Assembly (NCBI GenBank): GCA_017499595.2
Contig: CM039003.1
Location: forward strand, 930,001-994,000
Source: Psilocybe cubensis
Taxonomy: Eukaryota
Direction of reading: 5' to 3'
Length of the DNA stretch: 64,000 nucleotides
Part shown: positions 1 through 63,911 of the stretch, piece by piece
Position numbering within the stretch: the first letter of the stretch is position 1
Layout of the letters: each line of letters begins with the position of its first letter
The notes under the pieces: generated by a model
The model's input: only the letters and a program-made list of their open reading frames with translations
What the model was told of the DNA's origin: nothing
Database searches by the model: none
Program-made: the position numbers and the translations under genes

Positions 1-390
1 CATGAACTTAAGGCGCACTCACCTTCCAGACACACGCTCTTCGGGGCATGAACTTGAGCTTGAGCTTGAGTCTTGGATAGATCATACAAAGCAACGCCTT
101 GACCAGTTTACGACGAACGGTACATAAAAGTTGGAAGAAGACATATGTAAAGCATGAAGAAAAAACTCAATGGACCCGTGACCGTTAGGTCATGAATATA
201 GTGACCACCGGAATTAGACGCCGAACCACAATCGCATCTACGCGACTTGCAATTGGGGAAATTATGTTACGCGACAAAACGCGCTGATGATTGTTTGAAG
301 CATCGCTCACCGAGAATCCAGTTTACAGCTGATATCCCACTGCAATAGATATTCCACAACATACAAAAAAAAAAATAGGTGGTATCCAAC

Positions 391-2576: not shown

Positions 2577-3780
2577 CGGCAAAGAAGTCAGCAAAGGGTG
2601 CAGAGGGAGATAGAACGAGGTGTCGGACACAGCAGGCTGGAACGACGACCTAGCTCAATCTAATCGGAAGAGTATATGTAGTGGAGATAGAGCTGAGGAA
2701 AAGTCAAAATTAGTCTAGGGTCTAAGCAGGCAAAGCAAGTCGCTCGCCACAATGTCCGCCAGCAAACTTTTTATGAGCCATCGCTCCTGTCCCTCCCGGT
2801 TACCGGCCCTCTTGGCGTCCGAGTTCACGTGAATATCTCTTCCGGCAATGACCTCCCCGAAATGTTAGTTTTTCTGCTAATTTGGGGAGCCCATCCTGAG
2901 TGAGTCGGACATCGGGTGCTGAGGTGGTGGCCATTACTAACGGCGGGGTGCTTGAGTATCATATAGATAGCAAGGCTAAACTTGACACTGACAGAAATGC
3001 GATGCTCTGAATCCCATCCGTCGGCGTATCCGGATCATCGTCATCATATCTCCACTAGTCCCGCAATCGCATATTGGTTTCTCCAGTGTGGGGTTTGCCG
3101 GGGTATGCCCATGCGCTCTTCGTGTTCTCCATCGAGCAACAAGAAATTCCGACAAGGCTTAGCTGAGAGGCTGAGGCGCTGGGACGCTGATATACGTCGT
3201 ATTCGGCTTTTGAGCACTCGTTGGTGCGCCCGTAGATTCCATTCTGCTCTCAAGTGCTACAAGATGCATGATGATGCGATGCACGGGGATCAAAGTTTGA
3301 AGTTTGAAAAAGTAAGCTTTGGCGCGTGGCCGCTCTCTCCCCCGATTCAAGCTGAGATTAAACTTACTCGGACTTGTTTAAAAACCTTGCACTCTGTACA
3401 ATTCGACATTGTTCATCTCTTGCTTTCGTTTTTTTGTCTATCTGGTAGAACTCTCGCGAAGATGAAACTATCCCTCCAGAACGAGCATAGTATAGCTGGT
3501 TTGTTTGGACTTGAGATGAGTCCCTTCAAATTGTGTTGAATGGTAATTACAACCCCCAAATGCACCCAAGTTTTTTCAATCTGATCTGATGTGCTAAACT
3601 GAGAGTGTTGCTGATCCACTCATCGATCGATATAACTAGGAATCACAAAGCCTTCATGTCATCGAGATGACACATCGATATCCCCAAGACCCTCAAAGAG
3701 TGAACGCCCTCCAGTCTTTCACAACCCACAATAGCATTGTTTTCGTGAGTAATTCTCTCCATATAACCATCCACTACAAC

Positions 3781-4067
3781 TACGACTCGGGTCCCCTATC
3801 GGCATCCATGCGCCTCCGCCTCCGCCTCAGGCTTTTTGGCTTCGGCGTGCTGTAAGCATCTCATGCAGATGCAGACGTCTACTCCATCATACGGATCTCT
3901 TCCACTGGCTGACTTTGGTCGCCTCGTATAACAGGTTGAAGGGCTGACTTTGGTCGCCTGAGGGCCGGCGAGATGGGTATGTGGGATGTTACTCCTGTAA
4001 CCCATTAAGCTTTAAGTGTTATACAGTGGGGATCTTGATGGGATGTACGAGGGGGGTCCTAGTCGTA
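3781..4067 (+). ncRNA. Intronic structured RNA, copy 1
   Basis: TACGACTCGGGTCCCCTATCGGCATCCAT (3781-3809) pairs with ATGGGATGTACGAGGGGGGTCCTAGTCGTA (4038-4067), allowing G-U pairs and small bulges. Confidence 0.62.
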
Positions 4068-4476
4068 TCATGTTTTCTAAAACTCGACGGGACATGAAGA
4101 AATCGATGACTTACACTTTATTTTGTTTTGTTGTTCTTTTAGGGTACCGAAGTATGTGGAATTGGAGTTGCCGATTCGTTGACAAACCATTCCATTCTGA
4201 AGACTTGAAATTATTTGTGAGTCAATTTCTTATAACCGTCTTGCCAGAGTTTTCAAGCTGATATTGAAACAGATGTACCCATAGAAAAACAAAGTCGGAT
4301 TTTCTTCATGCCTTACACATGTCTTCTTCCAACTTTTATGTACCTTTCCACATCAATCAGCAAGGCGTTTACGTTATCCTGGATATGGTCCCATACAAGC
4401 CCAAGCACCGAGCACCAAAAAACGTTGGTCTGTAAGGTGAGCACTCCTTCTGACTTCACATCACCCAAACCCACCC

Positions 4477-4980
4477 CGCAATGCGCAACGCGCGAAACGT
4501 AACCCCCTATCGGCATCCACGCGCCAGACTTGTACAGGCGTGGGGACAAATGGAAGGAGCTATAGGAGGTTGTCCTGCTATAAGCTGCCTACATTGTCTT
4601 CATCATCCATGCATGCATCATGAAACCCCTCCAATGCCTCGATGATTGATTACATTACATCGGCGGCGCACCGCAAGTTCCCTAACCAAGCCGATTTGCA
4701 ATTAATTGCTTTGACACTGGCACGATATTATATTTATAATAATATTGTGAATTGGTCTGTGTTGGGAAGTTGAATATGGTAGTACGGCTGACTTTGTCGG
4801 TTTACTAGTGGATTGGGTGTGGGATTTATATATATGCGTATATGTGTATGCGTATGCGTATGCGTATATCTGTGTACATGCGTATGTGTATGTGTGTATG
4901 CGTTTTCCTGTGCCTTATCTGCTTCGTGATATTGGAGGATTTGTGATGGGACGTACGAGGGGGGTTACATCGCCATTGCG
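4477..4980 (+). ncRNA. Intronic structured RNA, copy 2
   Basis: GTAACCCCCTATCGGCATCC (4499-4518) pairs with GGGACGTACGAGGGGGGTTAC (4948-4968). Distal CGCAATG (4477) pairs with CATTGCG (ending 4980). Confidence 0.62.
4830..4902. repeat. Degenerate (TATGCG/TATGTG)n microsatellite inside the loop of RNA copy 2
   Basis: Directly visible repeat. Confidence 0.8.
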
Positions 4981-5550
4981 ATTTTTTCTTCTTCCTTCCT
5001 TTCTTTCTTTGTTTCTATGGGTGTGGTTGGCTCGGACACTGACACTGACAACGATTATACAGAGAATCCGAGGGGTATGTTGTGGAGTGGATATGGGATA
5101 GTGAGGCGGTACTATTTTTTACAAGATAGGTTGCGCATATAGTTATGATTTTCGTCCAAGTTTCGTCTTCTATTATCTTCCTCCGTCCAGCTAGTGTTGA
5201 ATATATGCGGCACTTGGTAGTGCATTGCGATCGCGTTACGTGTAGAACTAGAACACTCTTTGCCAACGCGCGCAATGCCGTAGTTGTACGTAAATTATCC
5301 ATGTCATTCCTGTCGTGATCAATTTCAAGCTCAGCTTTAATCTTGTTTAGCGAGTTTAAAAAGGCTTCGTGTTCGCATCACCTCTTTACCTCCTACTCTC
5401 ACTTATTTACTCGTTTGCTCTATTGGACGATGTCTCTACTCTGACAGAACGACTGTTGCGCCTATGCAGCGCATTGTCTATGTTGTCTGTAAGGTGAGTT
5501 TCACCTTTCCACCTCATTTTCTTCTCCCACTTCCAATTTTTCGTGTTTCC

Positions 5551-5936
5551 AATATGAATCCCCTATTGGCACACACGCGTCGTAATTCGACGTGTCATCG
5601 AAGTCCTCAGCACTTCTGACGAGAACAGCTTTCACGCTGTGTTATAACATGGCGTGTCAAGCGCATACTACAAATGCAGTAGGGCACAAAAAGAAAAAGA
5701 ATGCACAACATTGTAATTGGTCTGCCCCATTGCGCGACGTGGCACGGCGCTTTGCGCTGAGCTGCTTTGGATGACGTGTATACGATGCATCGGGTCTTCC
5801 TACTAATACCAAGAGGATGTATCTGGTCATGTGTTGAGCGGTATAGGACGGGGTGTGTGGCTTTTGTAGCTGCGATACTTTGGAGAGGTCCATCCGATGG
5901 GAGTTCTTGAGTGTGTGTACGGGGGGATTTTATGTT
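5551..5936 (+). ncRNA. Intronic structured RNA, copy 3
   Basis: AATATGAATCCCCTATTGGCACACAC (5551-5576) pairs with GTGTGTGTACGGGGGGATTTTATGTT (5911-5936). Confidence 0.62.
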
Positions 5937-6084
5937 CTTTTCCTTGATCTTGTGTCATGATTTTATCTCCATTGGGGACCGACGCGGATGTGCTAACGCG
6001 TGGACACTTTTAGGAATCTGCCTACTTGGTTCAATATTGCCAGGGGTGTGCAAAGTAAGTGTTGTTGTTGCTTTGGGCATGTTG

Positions 6085-6435
6085 GATACAATCCCCTATC
6101 GCGGCCACGCACCACTAGGTGGTGTACATGACTCTATCGAGTGCTGCATCAGCACCTGAGTATGTGTGGTATACGTTCAACAAACCCTCATTCAAACCCC
6201 TACTGGAATGCTGCATCAGCATGGTTGCTATGCTCTTTCTATCGGATTGAGCAGAAGTCAGGGGAATTATCCGCAGACCATTGTTTACCAAAACCTGCGC
6301 CGTGTGGTGTTATTAACCGACGGGATGACAGTGCTTGTGTTTTCTTGTTGCTGTCTCTTGTATCTCGGCGAAGGTCGAGACCTGATTGGGGGGGGCGCGT
6401 TGAATGTATGTGGTCCGTATGAGGGGGATTGTATT
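6085..6435 (+). ncRNA. Intronic structured RNA, copy 4
   Basis: GATACAATCCCCTATCGCGGCCACGCAC (6085-6112) pairs with GTATGTGGTCCGTATGAGGGGGATTGTATT (6406-6435). Confidence 0.62.
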
Positions 6436-7771
6436 TTTTTTCCTTGCGCCTTTGCTCTCTTTGTGTTTCTTTTATTGAACTGTTGCTAACTGTATTTGTT
6501 TTGATACTTTAGATGCTCTCTGGAGAACCAGCGGAAAGTTGGATTGACAACTGGAGGACTCTTCGGTGGGTTAAAGAAGTCACAAGTGAAGTGCTTCTCT
6601 TGATTTACACCAAGGTTTGTCTGCGTACTTCATGTTATAGCTATTTTCATATCGATAGACCTATCCGCTAAATTTACACGTACACGGATAAAGAATTTTA
6701 TTGAGCGGAGCATAAAATTTAAAGACGGCAAATTACGGGAACTAGCAAAATCGTCCATGAGTATTTACAAAAAAAGTCGAGCTATGAGAACTAAAGCAAT
6801 ACCAACACATCAGCAGCATCCTAGAGACACTCCCTTCTCAAACTGAAAGGCATGTCAGCGCTTTTCTGCAAGATCGTACCATAGATTAAAATAAAATCAA
6901 CATAGGAGCATTCCTTATGTAACAAGGTTACGCAGAAATTCAAGTCCGACTGTATGAATATATTTTTACGTTGGGCCTATCGATATGAAAATAGCTGTAA
7001 ATAAATGTATTTTGTAGCAGTGTATCATCGTCCTATATAGCTGAGATGTTTGAATAATCAACTCTATTGATTATGTAGTGTGAAAAGTGTGTGCCGTAAA
7101 TCGCTTGGGTACATGTCGAGTCTTCGAGTCGGCTTTTGGTTCACAGTTTTGATCCGTTTCGGCGCTTACCGAACTCAAATAAGCGAGCCGCCAGAAAGCA
7201 AAATTTGCTTGTCGGAAGACAGGGGCTCTTCTGGGAGGACTCACGACACATGTTTTTTTTTTCTTTTGCAAAGGCTGTAAATTTGGACTCACTTCCATTG
7301 GCGCGCGTAGGACTTCAAGTTCAACGACCTTGAATGCGGGAGGGTCGCTATATAGGTCGCTATATACTTGGTTCTGATAAAGAGGCTAAAAACAAGGTTA
7401 CAAGAATAGGCTATATGTGTGTTGTACTATTTGTACTCGAGAAGAACCAAGACCAAGGCTGGATCATGCATGGTCCGGGGAATTCGAAGGCCAACCAGCT
7501 CGCGAGTCACACGCCGCGACGGTTGCAGGGTTGTCTTTTCCCAACCATCTTCGTTGTTCAAGTCTTCAAGCCTTCAAGTTTCAAGCTTCAACGTCGATAC
7601 TATACCCCAACCCAACTATCTTCAACGTCCACACCATATTTCCTTCAACGTCGATATCGACACACCATATTCCAACCGTCTTCTACGTCGACACAACCAT
7701 TTCACCCAACCATCTACCCAACCATCCACCCAACATCGACACAACCATCCAACCCAACCATCCACCCAACC

Positions 7772-35587: not shown

Positions 35588-36266
35588 GGATTATTCTATT
35601 CAGAAACCCCAGAAACCCTAGAAACCCCATAGAAACCCCCAAAATTCATAAAATCGTTATGAATGTTGTGGATGAAGGTGTGATGAATGTTCAGAATGCC
35701 GTTTCGGCGGATTAGGTAGGAGCTTGTATTCTCATGCGGGCCGTTTCAAGTGGCCACTCGGGTGCGTAGGTGCAACTTCGCTCAAAAATGGAAAAAGCAG
35801 TAAATTAACAAGTTAAAAGCCTAGAAACCTCTGTATAATGTAGCTCTTTGTACCTACCACCACTACTATACTCTCTAGTAATTTTCTTGTATCTTATAGT
35901 ACTCTGGATGCCCTACCTCGGTGTTCATAAACATCAAATATGATATCCCCTCGAATAAATAACCGTTAAACGACTCGAAAGTCCACTGAATGTGTTTGGT
36001 GAGTTTCATTGGCACTATGGCTTGCATTAGAAACGTTAGCGTAGAGGAATTTAACAATTGAATGTATTTACATGAAGACGATCAACTACTGATTCAAAAG
36101 CAATGACGACGGCACGACACGGCAGACCAGAAAAGCTAGGTCGGACCTTAGACCTCCCATACATGTTCAAGCAGGGGTTTAGAATGTTGCTTCGAGGACT
36201 ATTCAGAAACCCCTGGGGTTTCTGGGGGTTTCTAGGGGTTTCTGGGGTTTCTGAATAGAATAATCC
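35588..36266. mobile_element. Nested MITE, Mutator (MULE)-like, 679 bp
   Basis: Near-perfect ~42-bp TIRs GGATTATTCTATTCAGAAACCCCAGAAACCC..., flanked by a perfect 9-bp direct repeat ATATAGACG (35579-35587 and 36267-36275). Confidence 0.9.
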
Positions 36267-61091: not shown

Positions 61092-63452
61092 CGAAGAACT
61101 AAGATTTCAAGGAGTTTGGCTTGACAAATTTCAGAAGAATAAATCTTCACCAGTATATCGCGTATACAGGCAAGTAGGAGTGTTTCGAAAAGGTTCGAAG
61201 CCACCAAGGTAAGCAGATCCAACTAGGTATGGCACTCAGTTTGGTCCTCAGTGGCGCGGCGGACATTCAATTGGCACGTGCCCCTGGTTCAAGATTGATC
61301 CCGGGGTGGTTGAACGAGGCGAACAACTTACATCTAGACGGGATGCATTTGATGACCTCGCAGGTAGCCGTACAATTTTCTAACGTTGAATAGATTCTCT
61401 TGTCAACTTCTGAAGTGAGTCTTAACTTCTTTTGACGAACGTTAGGTCCTACCGAGTACCGACTTTCAAATTTCCCAAAAGGCTAGCAATTTCGCATGGT
61501 TGACTACAAGGTTTCCAAGGTCTGTAGCAAATACTGCTTCAGTGAAGATTGTGGACCGCATTTGGATGATCAGGGACTATATATCAACGTTGCGTCGCAA
61601 AATGATGACACCCCTACATTCTTGCCTCATCGCTGTCTGTGTCTGTGGATCTAATCTGCTCGCATAGTCACTGTTAGATAGTTGCAATTTGACTACTGAT
61701 GGATTAACTTTAATGGCTCAATATTCTGAGTCATTTAGGTGGCACACAGCACACTCCCCTTTACTTAGAAGATAAAACGCATCCATGGGAATTACATTGC
61801 CGGCCTCCACCACGCCCGGTACTGAGGTGCTTAGACAACACACAGACCCAAAACAGTCAAAGGCAATGATTTTTCTGGGACTAAAGGTATATGACTCGTG
61901 CCAGTGGGAAATGTAGCGTCTTTTTCTGCTGCGGTTCTATTATTAATGTACTCGGAGTTGAAGTGACTCCATAGATCTCTTCCACATTTGGGTTGTGTGT
62001 GCAACCTGTACGTATTCTTCTTGATGTGTGTATTCTCTTATCGATGGACAGCCATGGGAGCCTGGGTATAAAACTACAATTGTTTCAATCGTGCCTTCCA
62101 TCCCTCGCCATTCAACCGCTCCCCCTTTCACCCATTCTTTCTATATCCTCAAACTAGCGATCTCCTAGAGTGCCGATAACGGTCATTTCTAGGCAGACGT
62201 CTTTTGTTTGAGAGAGTTGCTTTTATTCATTCATGTTGCTTGATGTCATGTTTTTTCTTCCTATGTTGTTCCATTGACGTGTTTTTTATTGTTTTCTTCC
62301 TTTCCATAGCGGGGCGGGGGCCCGTCTGGGTGTCAGACGAGATGAAGGGGGTATGGATTTCTCTTCGGACCCATAACGATCATGTTTGCAGTAGTCGACC
62401 GCATATTGACACGACACTCTATGAAGATAGAATTGTGTCGACAAACTTTACCATTGTAAGTCATTTCCAAGTACAAACGCTGGCAGGAGTACTAAACAAT
62501 TTGTTAATCTAGTTTACTTTCCTGTCATATTATGCCGGCATCGATGGCCTATGCGCTATCATTCAGCCATTGATAATGGAACAAAATTCTTAACGCCATC
62601 CATTCTTCTTGCATAATTTGCTTGTCGTCATCGAGAGGGTCTTCAGTAGCCTGAACTCCCGGTGTCCCTGTCTTTGTCGTAAGCACATATTTGTTAATCC
62701 ATGATTTATCGCAACCTAACATAACATACCTAGGTAGTTTCTCAACTGTTTTCCCCAACGCTCGGAGGCCTCATTACTACCCATTCACTCGGAGAATACC
62801 AAAATATTCCCACTTAGTCGCATATTGCGCATTCAGCTCCGGGCGTTCACACAGACGACACTAATGACACTATATCCTGTATTGATTGAGGTGGGTGAAG
62901 CAATCTACGCCAGGATTTCTGACGGCTTACATAGTTCTTTTGCCAGAGCATACGCTGCACCGTGACATGCCGGCAATTATTACCACTCGCACTACATCAC
63001 ACCCGTCTCCCCAATAACTTAGCGCAAGACCCTTGACTCCCAGGATGTGGGTAGACATATACCTTATCAATCTTCAGTCACTGAACGTGCTGCCAGAGTC
63101 ATCCATTCTTTCAAAAAGCTGCAAAGCACCCTATCGTTCAAAATTAATTTACCGTACCGCAAACTCGCTTATATGTCCAATATTTGTCTCCAAAATATCC
63201 GTATACGCGTCTCATCCCCAATACTTCCCTTTCCATGTTAACATTTTTTGACAACAATTATCATTCACAAATCCTCCATCAACCTACATTGCATATGAGT
63301 TCATCATCTCTATATTATATAGCATGATGTGTCTCCTTCCTACTTTGATTAGATATAGTAATCTAACACTAAATCAAGCATCCACATCATTTAAATCTTT
63401 TGATTTTGATTGTGTGCATTTCTACTAGTACAAATCCATTTTGCCATCTATT

Positions 63453-63911
63453 TTAGTCCACCATGCTATATGGCTGAAACTCTGTGAACCAACCCGGCTG
63501 GATACACAGGCTTCGCATACCGTAATTGACGGCTCTCAAATATGCGTGGTCGGAGGCAACCGCAAGATCATGCCATGTCTCATTGGTGGCTATTGCAACC
63601 ACCAACATGCGGCCATGATTCTCTTCAGGCGGACCATGAACCCATCTCCAATACTGAAAACTTGGGTCCATACGCTTGGGTAACGCATTTATAATAATTT
63701 CATATGCCGGAATGTGACGCTGAGTAGGAGGGGCTTCGGGGTCGAAGGCGATTCCAACATTGATCAGAAGTTGGTCCAAATCTTTGTTAAGGAGAGGGAA
63801 CCCGTAGACTCTTAGCGGCTCCTGCTTGCCTTTAACGTATCTACGAACCGATGGATATTGGATCTCGAGTTCTTGTCGTTTGAGCCAGCGGTCAATGATC
63901 CTGAAATACAC
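63453..63911 (-). CDS. Hypothetical protein, probably the last exon of a gene starting at or beyond the window edge
   Basis: 152-codon ORF with globular-protein-like composition (PLRVYGFPL...MLVVAIATN...PGWF). No family recognised. Confidence 0.4.
   Translation of the reverse strand: MYFRIIDRWLKRQELEIQYPSVRRYVKGKQEPLRVYGFPLLNKDLDQLLINVGIAFDPEAPPTQRHIPAYEIIINALPKRMDPSFQYWRWVHGPPEENHGRMLVVAIATNETWHDLAVASDHAYLRAVNYGMRSLCIQPGWFTEFQPYSMVD

Follow-up and report, generated by a model that had tools for sequence, protein, structure and literature searches.

Four paralogous intronic elements with a co-adapted closing helix in Psilocybe cubensis: candidate RNA structural modules

Four paralogous elements in a 64,000 nucleotide (nt) stretch of the Psilocybe cubensis genome (contig CM039003.1, positions 930,001 to 994,000; the whole stretch is called the window) were analysed. 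All four lie on the + strand and were numbered copies 1 to 4 by position. The two ends of each element pair into a closing helix, designated P1. Its fold was predicted robustly, its two arms were found to be co-adapted within each copy, and the introns in which the elements lie are spliced. The explanation considered best, held tentatively and a little short of even confidence, is that these are RNA structural modules in introns, likely looping out the interior, with a fold that has been selected as RNA. An earlier note on this DNA had described four elements with shared 5' and 3' arms that pair at long range; motif searches, RNAduplex calculations and folds all agreed with that description.

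Contigs of four sequencing runs were used. X8 and X11 are two runs of one study and were taken as RNA because of their spliced joints, while X7 and X10 are DNA runs.

Location and conservation of the arms

The elements and their arms are located as follows.
3781..4067, + strand: element copy 1; P1 is formed by 3781-3807 with 4041-4067, 24 pairs
3793-3814 and 4036-4057, + strand: conserved 22-mers of copy 1
4477..4981, + strand: element copy 2; P1 is formed by 4489-4518 with 4949-4980, 25 pairs
4477-4483 and 4975-4981, + strand: further outer pairing of copy 2, CGCAATG/CATTGCG
4504-4525 and 4944-4965, + strand: conserved 22-mers of copy 2
5551..5936, + strand: element copy 3; P1 is formed by 5551-5576 with 5911-5936, 22 pairs
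5560-5581 and 5906-5927, + strand: arms of copy 3
6084..6436, + strand: element copy 4; P1 is formed by 6084-6108 with 6410-6436, 24 pairs
6093 (start) and 6427 (end), + strand: arms of copy 4

The 5' motif CCCCTATYGS was found exactly four times in the 64 kb, always on the + strand, at 3793, 4504, 5560 and 6093. The shuffle expectation is 0.32, and four matches were reached in 0 of 100 shuffles. The 3' motif GTAYGRGGGGG, with at most one mismatch, also gave four matches (ends at 4055, 4963, 5927 and 6427) and is weak by itself, as 10 of 100 shuffles also give four. Comparison of 2900-6800 with the whole window by blastn returned only two 22-nt arm blocks, those of copies 1 and 2, each identical at 21 of 22 positions. 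The mean identity among the copies is 80% for the 22-nt 5' arms and 77% for the 3' arms against 56-57% in shuffles (z about 8). Shuffle level is not exceeded in the upstream exon, the intron flanks on the 5' and 3' sides, the adjoining 40 nt, the interiors or the whole introns.

Between the arms lie 230-430 nt of unrelated interior sequence. A shared-motif search of the four interiors found no motif common to three or more copies. The only interior motifs in common are GGCTGACTTTG, present twice in copy 1 and once in copy 2, and AATTGGTCTG, present in copies 2 and 3; the longest sharing is an 11-mer in copies 1 and 2. Joints within the interiors of X7, X8 and X10 contigs skip 60-191 nt (3873>3937, 4525>4586, 4607>4799) and are read here as probable indels that distinguish strains or paralogues. 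If so, the interior can undergo large changes without loss of the arms. Two local repeats were also observed in the interiors. Copy 1 holds an 18-nt direct repeat, GGCTGACTTTGGTCGCCT, twice, 35 nt apart (3907-3959), and the 63-nt skip 3873>3937 at this repeat, seen in X8 and X7 contigs, suggests an indel polymorphism. Copy 2 holds an imperfect TG/CG microsatellite at about 4830-4905.

No further copy of either arm was found in the other 61 kb of the window. A candidate fifth copy at 63128-63733, with one mismatch in each core motif, was rejected as it has no arm similarity. A metagenome scan with the 5' arm pattern gave 17 loci, mostly on high-GC contigs, of which none had the 3' arm within 900 nt. 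These were taken as chance matches, and one of them is an unrelated tandem repeat.

Closing helix P1

The inner stems quoted in the earlier note (CATCC/GGATG, CACAC/GTGTG and CGGCCAC/GTGGTCCG) and the outer stems (TACGACT/AGTCGTA, GTAAC/GTTAC, AATATGAAT/ATTTTATGTT and GATACAAT/ATTGTATT) were all located in the sequence. The arms of P1 were paired with RNAduplex, which gave 24, 25, 22 and 24 pairs for copies 1 to 4 with energies of -37.4, -33.4, -28.4 and -33.6 kcal/mol; slightly different arm windows gave -37.2, -34.4, -29.8 and -34.6 kcal/mol. Among 3807 segments of similar length drawn at random from the window, only 1, 2, 9 and 1 paired their ends equally well. P1 closes the minimum-free-energy fold of every element; against dinucleotide shuffles the z-scores are -4.41, -5.29, -3.73 and -4.04. 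With the whole intron folded, the pair probabilities of the P1 core were 0.72-0.99 in three copies; in copy 2, P1 was one register off, with 26 enclosing pairs in the minimum-free-energy fold.

The architecture of P1 comprises a copy-specific outer part, a conserved core and a covarying inner part. The core consists of the paired C-run and G-run, then an unpaired A that is conserved, then a step of 3 bp. An arm-swap test was carried out over the 24 possible assignments of 5' to 3' arms. The cognate assignment was the best of the 24: its energies sum to -136.0, those of the second-best assignment to -123.8. It also ranked first of 24 with the 12-nt outer flanks alone, and third with the inner part alone.

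The pairs at the five positions of inner P1 are given below for copies 1, 2, 3 and 4 in that order.
Position 1: G.U, G.U, G.U, G.U
Position 2: C-G, C-G, C-G, C-G
Position 3: A-U, A.C, A-U, G-C
Position 4: U-A, U-A, C-G, G-C
Position 5: C-G, C-G, A-U, C-G

The single mismatch, in copy 2, places A4515 opposite C4952 in the window sequence. Position 4515 is G in all four X7 contigs and in the sole X10 contig that covers it, so that a G-C pair stands there where copy 1 has A-U. Compensatory changes are present in three helical segments, namely inner P1, outer P1 and the adjoining hairpin P2. The pair counts were made with custom scripts, because whole-element MAFFT alignments left the 3' arms 0-2 columns out of register and P2 unaligned.

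Hairpin P2 and search for known RNA families

A second helix, P2, which the earlier note did not contain, starts with the five final bases of the conserved 5' arm (GCGCC, GCGCC, GCGTC and GCACC in copies 1 to 4).
3810..3848, + strand: P2 of copy 1, GCGCC/GGCGT; pair probabilities 0.80-0.84
4521..4541, + strand: P2 of copy 2, GCGCC/GGCGT with an 11-nt loop; pair probabilities 0.79-0.87
5577..5593, + strand: P2 of copy 3, GCGTCG/CGACGT with a 5-nt loop; pair probabilities 0.90-0.96
6109..6125, + strand: P2 of copy 4, GCACCAC/GTGGTGT with a 3-nt loop; pair probabilities 0.75-0.97

P2 occurs in all four minimum-free-energy folds and keeps pair probabilities of 0.75-0.97 with the whole intron folded. 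Its first pair is G.U in every copy. Both members of a pair have changed in two cases: copy 4 has A-U in place of G-C, and copy 3 has U-A in place of C-G. Depending on the copy, 8-27% of shuffles also offer a complete 5-bp partner, and multiplying these four chances gives about 6e-4.

The region 3000-7500 was scanned on both strands against Rfam 15 with E up to 1, and no score reached gathering level, so the family check that the earlier note had named returned no match. Six matches to microRNA (miRNA)-like and small nucleolar RNA (snoRNA)-like families, mir-297, mir-3149 and mir-1277 among them, were rejected as spurious. All fall on the TG/CG microsatellite 4828-4907 of copy 2, which is of low complexity, and score 19-40 bits against gathering thresholds of 64-100. 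The view that C/D and H/ACA boxes are lacking was upheld, since reading of the sequence, with no dedicated snoRNA finder run, gave neither a RUGAUGA...CUGA pair nor an ACA three bases from the 3' end. The arm sequences gave no match in the searchable open-access literature, supplements excluded, and no description of such elements in basidiomycetes was found within the same scope.

As P1 is an imperfect double-stranded RNA of 22-25 bp, and the conserved blocks of copies 1 and 2 measure 22 nt per arm, P1 could be a substrate of Dicer or RNase III, yielding small RNAs of about 22 nt from the arms or cleavage of the unspliced RNA. The criteria for miRNA and microRNA-like RNA (milRNA) hairpins given in PMC9757828 allow no secondary stems in the foldback and at most 20 unpaired bases. 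The branched structure of 230-430 nt between the arms fails them, and with it the milRNA precursor proposed in the earlier note. The inner 5-7 nt of each 22-mer are moreover not paired with each other but lie in P2 or are single-stranded, and this explanation is regarded as very unlikely.

Strand asymmetry and element flanks

The 5' arms were compared with the reverse complements of the 3' arms. The comparison gave 82 matches, 12 transitions of the G.U type, 2 of the A.C type and 9 transversions. In every copy P1 is less stable on the - strand, and the energies of the whole elements are 23-63 kcal/mol lower on the + strand. This asymmetry is as expected from selection on a + strand RNA.

Target-site duplications were searched for at boundary offsets of 0-15 on each side (16 by 16) and at lengths of 2-10 nt. 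None was found: for lengths of at least 3 nt, no scheme brings more than two of the four copies into agreement, and no copy has a duplication of 8-10 nt. The flanks of the elements are inverted and not direct repeats in four of four copies, a pattern that transposition does not produce. The outermost 8-12 paired nt differ wholly between copies, and the conserved block is subterminal. The earlier note had named miniature inverted-repeat transposable elements (MITEs) as the case that would overturn its reading; there are neither target-site duplications nor further copies in the remaining 61 kb. Its central claim, that structure is kept while sequence drifts, is supported, and the pattern fits a + strand RNA better than a decaying DNA repeat. 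The evidence consists of the cognate-specific arms, the compensatory pairs of P1 and P2, the 12 against 2 transitions, and the absence of a target-site duplication and of an Rfam family.

A neutral origin was also weighed, in which the elements are leftovers of a duplicated ancestral palindromic intron and the likeness of the arms is due to chance or local mutation bias. The copies are few, confined to one locus and all related, as such an origin would have it. The arms of copies 1 and 2 are nevertheless identical at 21 of 22 positions while their surroundings are at shuffle level, and neither the compensatory changes in three helical segments nor the strand-specific excess of G.U pairs fits neutral drift, which makes this the least credible of the explanations considered.

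Host transcript and introns

The region had been described as free of open reading frames (ORFs). The absence of a long ORF was confirmed, but the region is transcribed and spliced, and the elements lie inside GT..AG introns instead of being free-standing genes. GT..AG joints span all four elements in X8 contigs, and the joint 6054>6513 is also found in X11; contigs of the DNA runs X7 and X10 carry none of the splice joints. The joints of X8 and X11 are 3731>4143, 4216>4273, 4434>5061, 5491>6012 and 6054>6513, all GT..AG save the first.
3745..4142, + strand: intron with copy 1, 398 nt; the acceptor is exact (joint 3731>4143)
4217..4272, + strand: ordinary intron without an element, 56 nt, joint 4216>4273 GT..AG, between the introns of copies 1 and 2
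4437..5062, + strand: intron with copy 2, 626 nt, joint 4434>5061 (cut +2) GT..AG
5494..6013, + strand: intron with copy 3, 520 nt, joint 5491>6012 (cut +2) GT..AG in X8; CTAAC at 5993-5997
6055..6512, + strand: intron with copy 4, 458 nt, joint 6054>6513 GT..AG in X8 and X11; CTAAC at 6486-6490
3689..5234, + strand: first spliced unit, exons at least 3689-3744, 4143-4216, 4273-4436 and 5063-5234; longest ATG ORF 55 aa
5382..6669, + strand: second spliced unit or continuation of the first, exons 5382-5493, 6014-6054 and 6513-6669; longest ATG ORF 53 aa

The donor of the copy 1 intron, GTGAGT at 3745, is the probable one from the window, X8 having eight strain-specific letters at the exon end. 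At 6012, X11 carries 17 loose letters that read as window 5475-5491. The first four exons are joined in one X8 contig, and 5382-5493, 6014-6054 and 6513-6669 in another. The spliced forms hold no ATG ORF longer than 55 aa, and a frame of 139 aa is obtained only on assuming a putative intron at 5290-5350. Judged by ORF length, the host transcripts are apparently non-coding. The segments 2761-3565 and 7108-7400 and parts of the introns have no cover by RNA contigs, from which no reading was drawn.

The position of the elements within their introns was then compared. P1 starts 29-57 nt past the donor and ends 76-82 nt before the acceptor. The distance from the element end to the 3' splice site is 86, 98, 87 and 85 nt for element lengths of 264-461 nt. 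Candidate branch sites were taken from CTRAC-like motifs, namely CTTAC at 4110, CTGAC at 5039 or 5045, CTAAC at 5993 and CTAAC at 6486. The linkers, that is, donor to P1 plus P1 to predicted branch site, then amount to 81, 113-119, 116 and 81 nt in copies 1 to 4.

These features also bear on the strongest rival to the intronic modules, according to which stable RNAs are derived from the elements, with the spliced non-coding transcript serving only as a host. Exonucleases would trim the intron back to P1, a protein on the P1 core and P2 would protect it, and what matters for function would be the terminal domain or simply that the ribonucleoprotein (RNP) is there. Four long introns in a row each hold a single element, in a transcript that lacks a credible ORF, and the spacing of element to acceptor is nearly constant (85-98 nt) in spite of element lengths of 264-461 nt. 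The arm conservation of 77-80% falls within the 72-84% of intronic snoRNAs and outside the range of zipper stems as given in PMC12350175. As a weak hint, four of the five listed intron-internal X8/X11 contigs end within or 1 nt past the 3' G-run (4053, 5925, about 6427 and 6428), while X7 DNA contigs continue through 4056 and 6427; contig 6053-6424 begins at the 5' splice site. However, X8 and X11 come from a single study, and neither the ends nor the levels of an RNA can be read from contigs. The intron-internal contig 4588-5090 passes the end of copy 2 into the next exon, and a 5' contig end at P1 was not seen. The lack of C/D or H/ACA boxes and of an Rfam match also tells against stable RNAs, as does the unconserved interior, which would be odd for a trans-acting RNA. 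The explanation is considered possible but improbable.

Neighbouring features of the window

The neighbouring genes are a carnitine acyltransferase gene (- strand) and an EBP-family gene. Together with the short GT..AG introns and their branch motifs of CTAAC type, they are consistent with a fungus. A stop-to-stop frame of 190 aa at 2967-3539 (+ strand) matches nothing in Pfam and is not covered by X8 or X11, the two probable RNA runs. A separate MITE-like element was observed at 6635-7000, with 50-nt inverted arms that are 76% complementary and possibly TA flanks; its summed DNA-contig depth is 30-40x that of the flanks in X7 and about 25x in X10. Over its left arm, pieces of an X11 contig (6513-6611, then 6691-6720) imply an intron of about 79 nt that is not among the listed joints. 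At 35588-36266 lies a foldback or MITE-like feature with 52-nt arms, 87% complementary, and AGAAACCCC-type repeats, which is unrelated to the four elements.

Probable duplication history and paralogues

Short colinear landmarks recur along the locus. TTCAAGCTSAG... is found at 3346, 4252 and 5324, and GTCTGTAAG|GTGAG at 4428 and 5485; the arms themselves make a third type of landmark. This colinearity suggests that an exon-intron unit was duplicated in tandem, as opposed to four insertions. A paralogous exon was also located.
22..170, - strand: paralogous exon, with a 49-nt block 94% identical to 4300-4348; paralogous to 4273-4436

This exon lies just downstream of the carnitine acyltransferase gene and ends GTCTGGAAG|GTGAGT, like the GTCTGTAAG|GTGAG at 4428 and 5485; its intron exits the window start. 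Only the first 10 codons of its short ORF are in common, so the conservation looks nucleotide-level.

The unit of copy 3, 5176-5980, shows raised summed contig depth (80-111 against about 25 in X7, 23-29 against about 10 in X10), and two X10 contigs map to it at about 80-88% identity. The genomes of X7 and X10 may hold more paralogues of this unit, though a summed depth is no copy number.

In a second alternative the elements would be relics of a proliferating element, either a MITE-like transposon in introns or introner-like or 'sister' introns multiplied via RNA, which then decayed; the arms would be conserved termini and the fold a by-product or a part of the propagation. Terminal inverted repeats around unrelated interiors are in keeping with this origin. 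Introner-like elements are long and stably folded with compensatory mutations, according to PMC3609843. The paralogous exon and donor on the opposite strand 4 kb away also favour it, and the summed X7/X10 depth of 5176-5980, at 2-4x the flanks, hints at more copies. Yet target-site duplications are lacking, the flanking repeats are inverted and not direct in all four copies, and the variable outermost pairs with a subterminal conserved part seem the reverse of transposon ends. All four copies have the orientation of the host transcript, and none occurs in the other 61 kb. Their summed DNA contig depth is 1-4x the flanks against 30-40x for the MITE at 6635-7000. As P1 starts 29-57 nt past the donor and ends well before the branch site, the intron ends fall outside the repeat, and whole-intron identity is at shuffle level. 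The missing duplications, the variable outermost pairs, the common orientation and the modest depth count against a MITE in particular. An introner-like or sister-intron origin may still apply, although the likeness within such families extends over the intron or its ends, unlike here. Relics of either kind are rated as unlikely.

Proposed mechanism

For the preferred explanation, that of RNA structural modules in introns, the following mechanism is proposed. The copies would have arisen by local duplication of an exon-intron unit, and the fold would be maintained by selection on the transcribed RNA. P1 would loop out the interior and so bring the donor to about 81, 113-119, 116 and 81 nt from the predicted branch site instead of 350-600 nt. 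As the arms keep their sequence, and not their pairing alone, while all else has been randomised, the P1 core and P2 are likely recognised by a factor that reads sequence, probably a protein.

Several observations weigh against this explanation. The evidence consists of four related paralogues in one locus and one strain variant, hence the counts are not independent, and the best attainable result of the permutation is 1 in 24. Several of the G.U pairs sit at core positions common to all copies and are likewise not independent, and the 3' arms are G/T-rich on the + strand, which alone favours G.U pairs and a lower folding energy. X8 and X11 are only presumed to be RNA runs, on the ground of their spliced joints. 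A role of P1 in splicing is suggested by analogy, with branch sites predicted from motifs; the linkers of copies 2 and 3 exceed the 85-nt limit of zipper stems, and a looping-out role alone would leave the arm conservation of 77-80% and P2 unexplained.

In filamentous fungi introns stay very short. Four adjacent ones of 400-600 nt that have only a covarying closing helix and a hairpin in common would offer a natural test case for two questions: how long introns are tolerated under intron definition, and whether an intron structure can be conserved in sequence because it is bound. A bolder proposal, which must be called doubtful, is that the elements are the first members of a class of intron-encoded RNAs or RNP-binding modules not described before, in a mushroom-type fungus; they would be bounded by P1 with P2 beside it, one per intron, with a small family of highly expressed non-coding genes as hosts. 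If true, it would parallel the snoRNA host genes with another type of RNA, in which only the terminal domain matters. Should stable RNAs arise from the introns, the locus would represent a non-coding host gene of a new type. Were the elements relics of proliferating introns, the structured 'sister intron' families, so far of Ascomycota, would extend to another fungal group.

Comparison with known systems

MITEs such as the one at 6635-7000 resemble the elements in having inverted terminal repeats around a few hundred bases. The elements differ from it in their short, bulged arms with G.U pairs, in the absence of a target-site duplication and in having no comparable depth excess.

Intronic snoRNAs, as generally known, share one structured element per intron, a host without a credible ORF, a terminal stem formed by the ends and a fairly constant spacing to the 3' splice site. 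The elements differ in lacking C/D or H/ACA boxes and any Rfam snoRNA match above noise, in their length of 264-461 nt and in their unconserved interior.

Introner-like elements of Dothideomycetes, in a paper that also describes duplication of an intron within one gene (PMC3609843), are comparable in their GT..AG joints, length (398-626 nt here against 56 nt for the ordinary intron), stable folding (z of -3.7 to -5.3 here) and compensatory mutations. Their own features are near-identical whole introns, in hundreds of copies and in unrelated genes, against two 22-nt blocks in four copies at one locus here.

Zipper stems have an established role in looping out long yeast introns, with linkers of 42-85 nt (PMC12350175). 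Like them, P1 is a helix of at least 6 bp between donor and predicted branch site that loops out most of a 400-600 nt intron, and in all four copies its start is over 10 nt away from the donor and its end over 20 nt short of the predicted branch site. With the predicted branch sites, the linkers of copies 1 and 4 (81 nt each) fall within the limit, while those of copies 2 (113-119 nt) and 3 (116 nt) exceed it. Zipper stems are reported to be conserved in sequence at only 20-30%, against 72-84% for intronic snoRNAs (PMC12350175). The arms described here are conserved at 77-80% over four paralogous introns, and the conserved P2 adjoins them. The host, unlike that of the yeast stems, is an apparently non-coding transcript in a filamentous fungus, where normal introns measure about 56-61 nt.

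The sister [D1,2] stwintrons of Xylariales carry near-terminal inverted repeats, NTIRE-10 (PMC12403724, PMC8469720); a stwintron is defined by an internal intron that splits the donor of an external intron. They too are related fungal introns in which complementary repeats form an RNA stem, with fully complementary variants, apparently irrelevant folding of the interior and no flanking duplications. Their distinguishing features are nested twin introns, a stem that unites the terminal G's, and residence in unrelated protein-coding genes of Ascomycota. In the present elements, by contrast, no splice-site-like GT/AG stands at the element borders, the copies form one local array, and the stem begins 29-57 nt after the donor and ends 76-82 nt ahead of the acceptor. 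By defining features the elements appear to belong to neither group; the zipper stems are the closest known system in presumed mode of action, and the structured sister introns in presumed origin.

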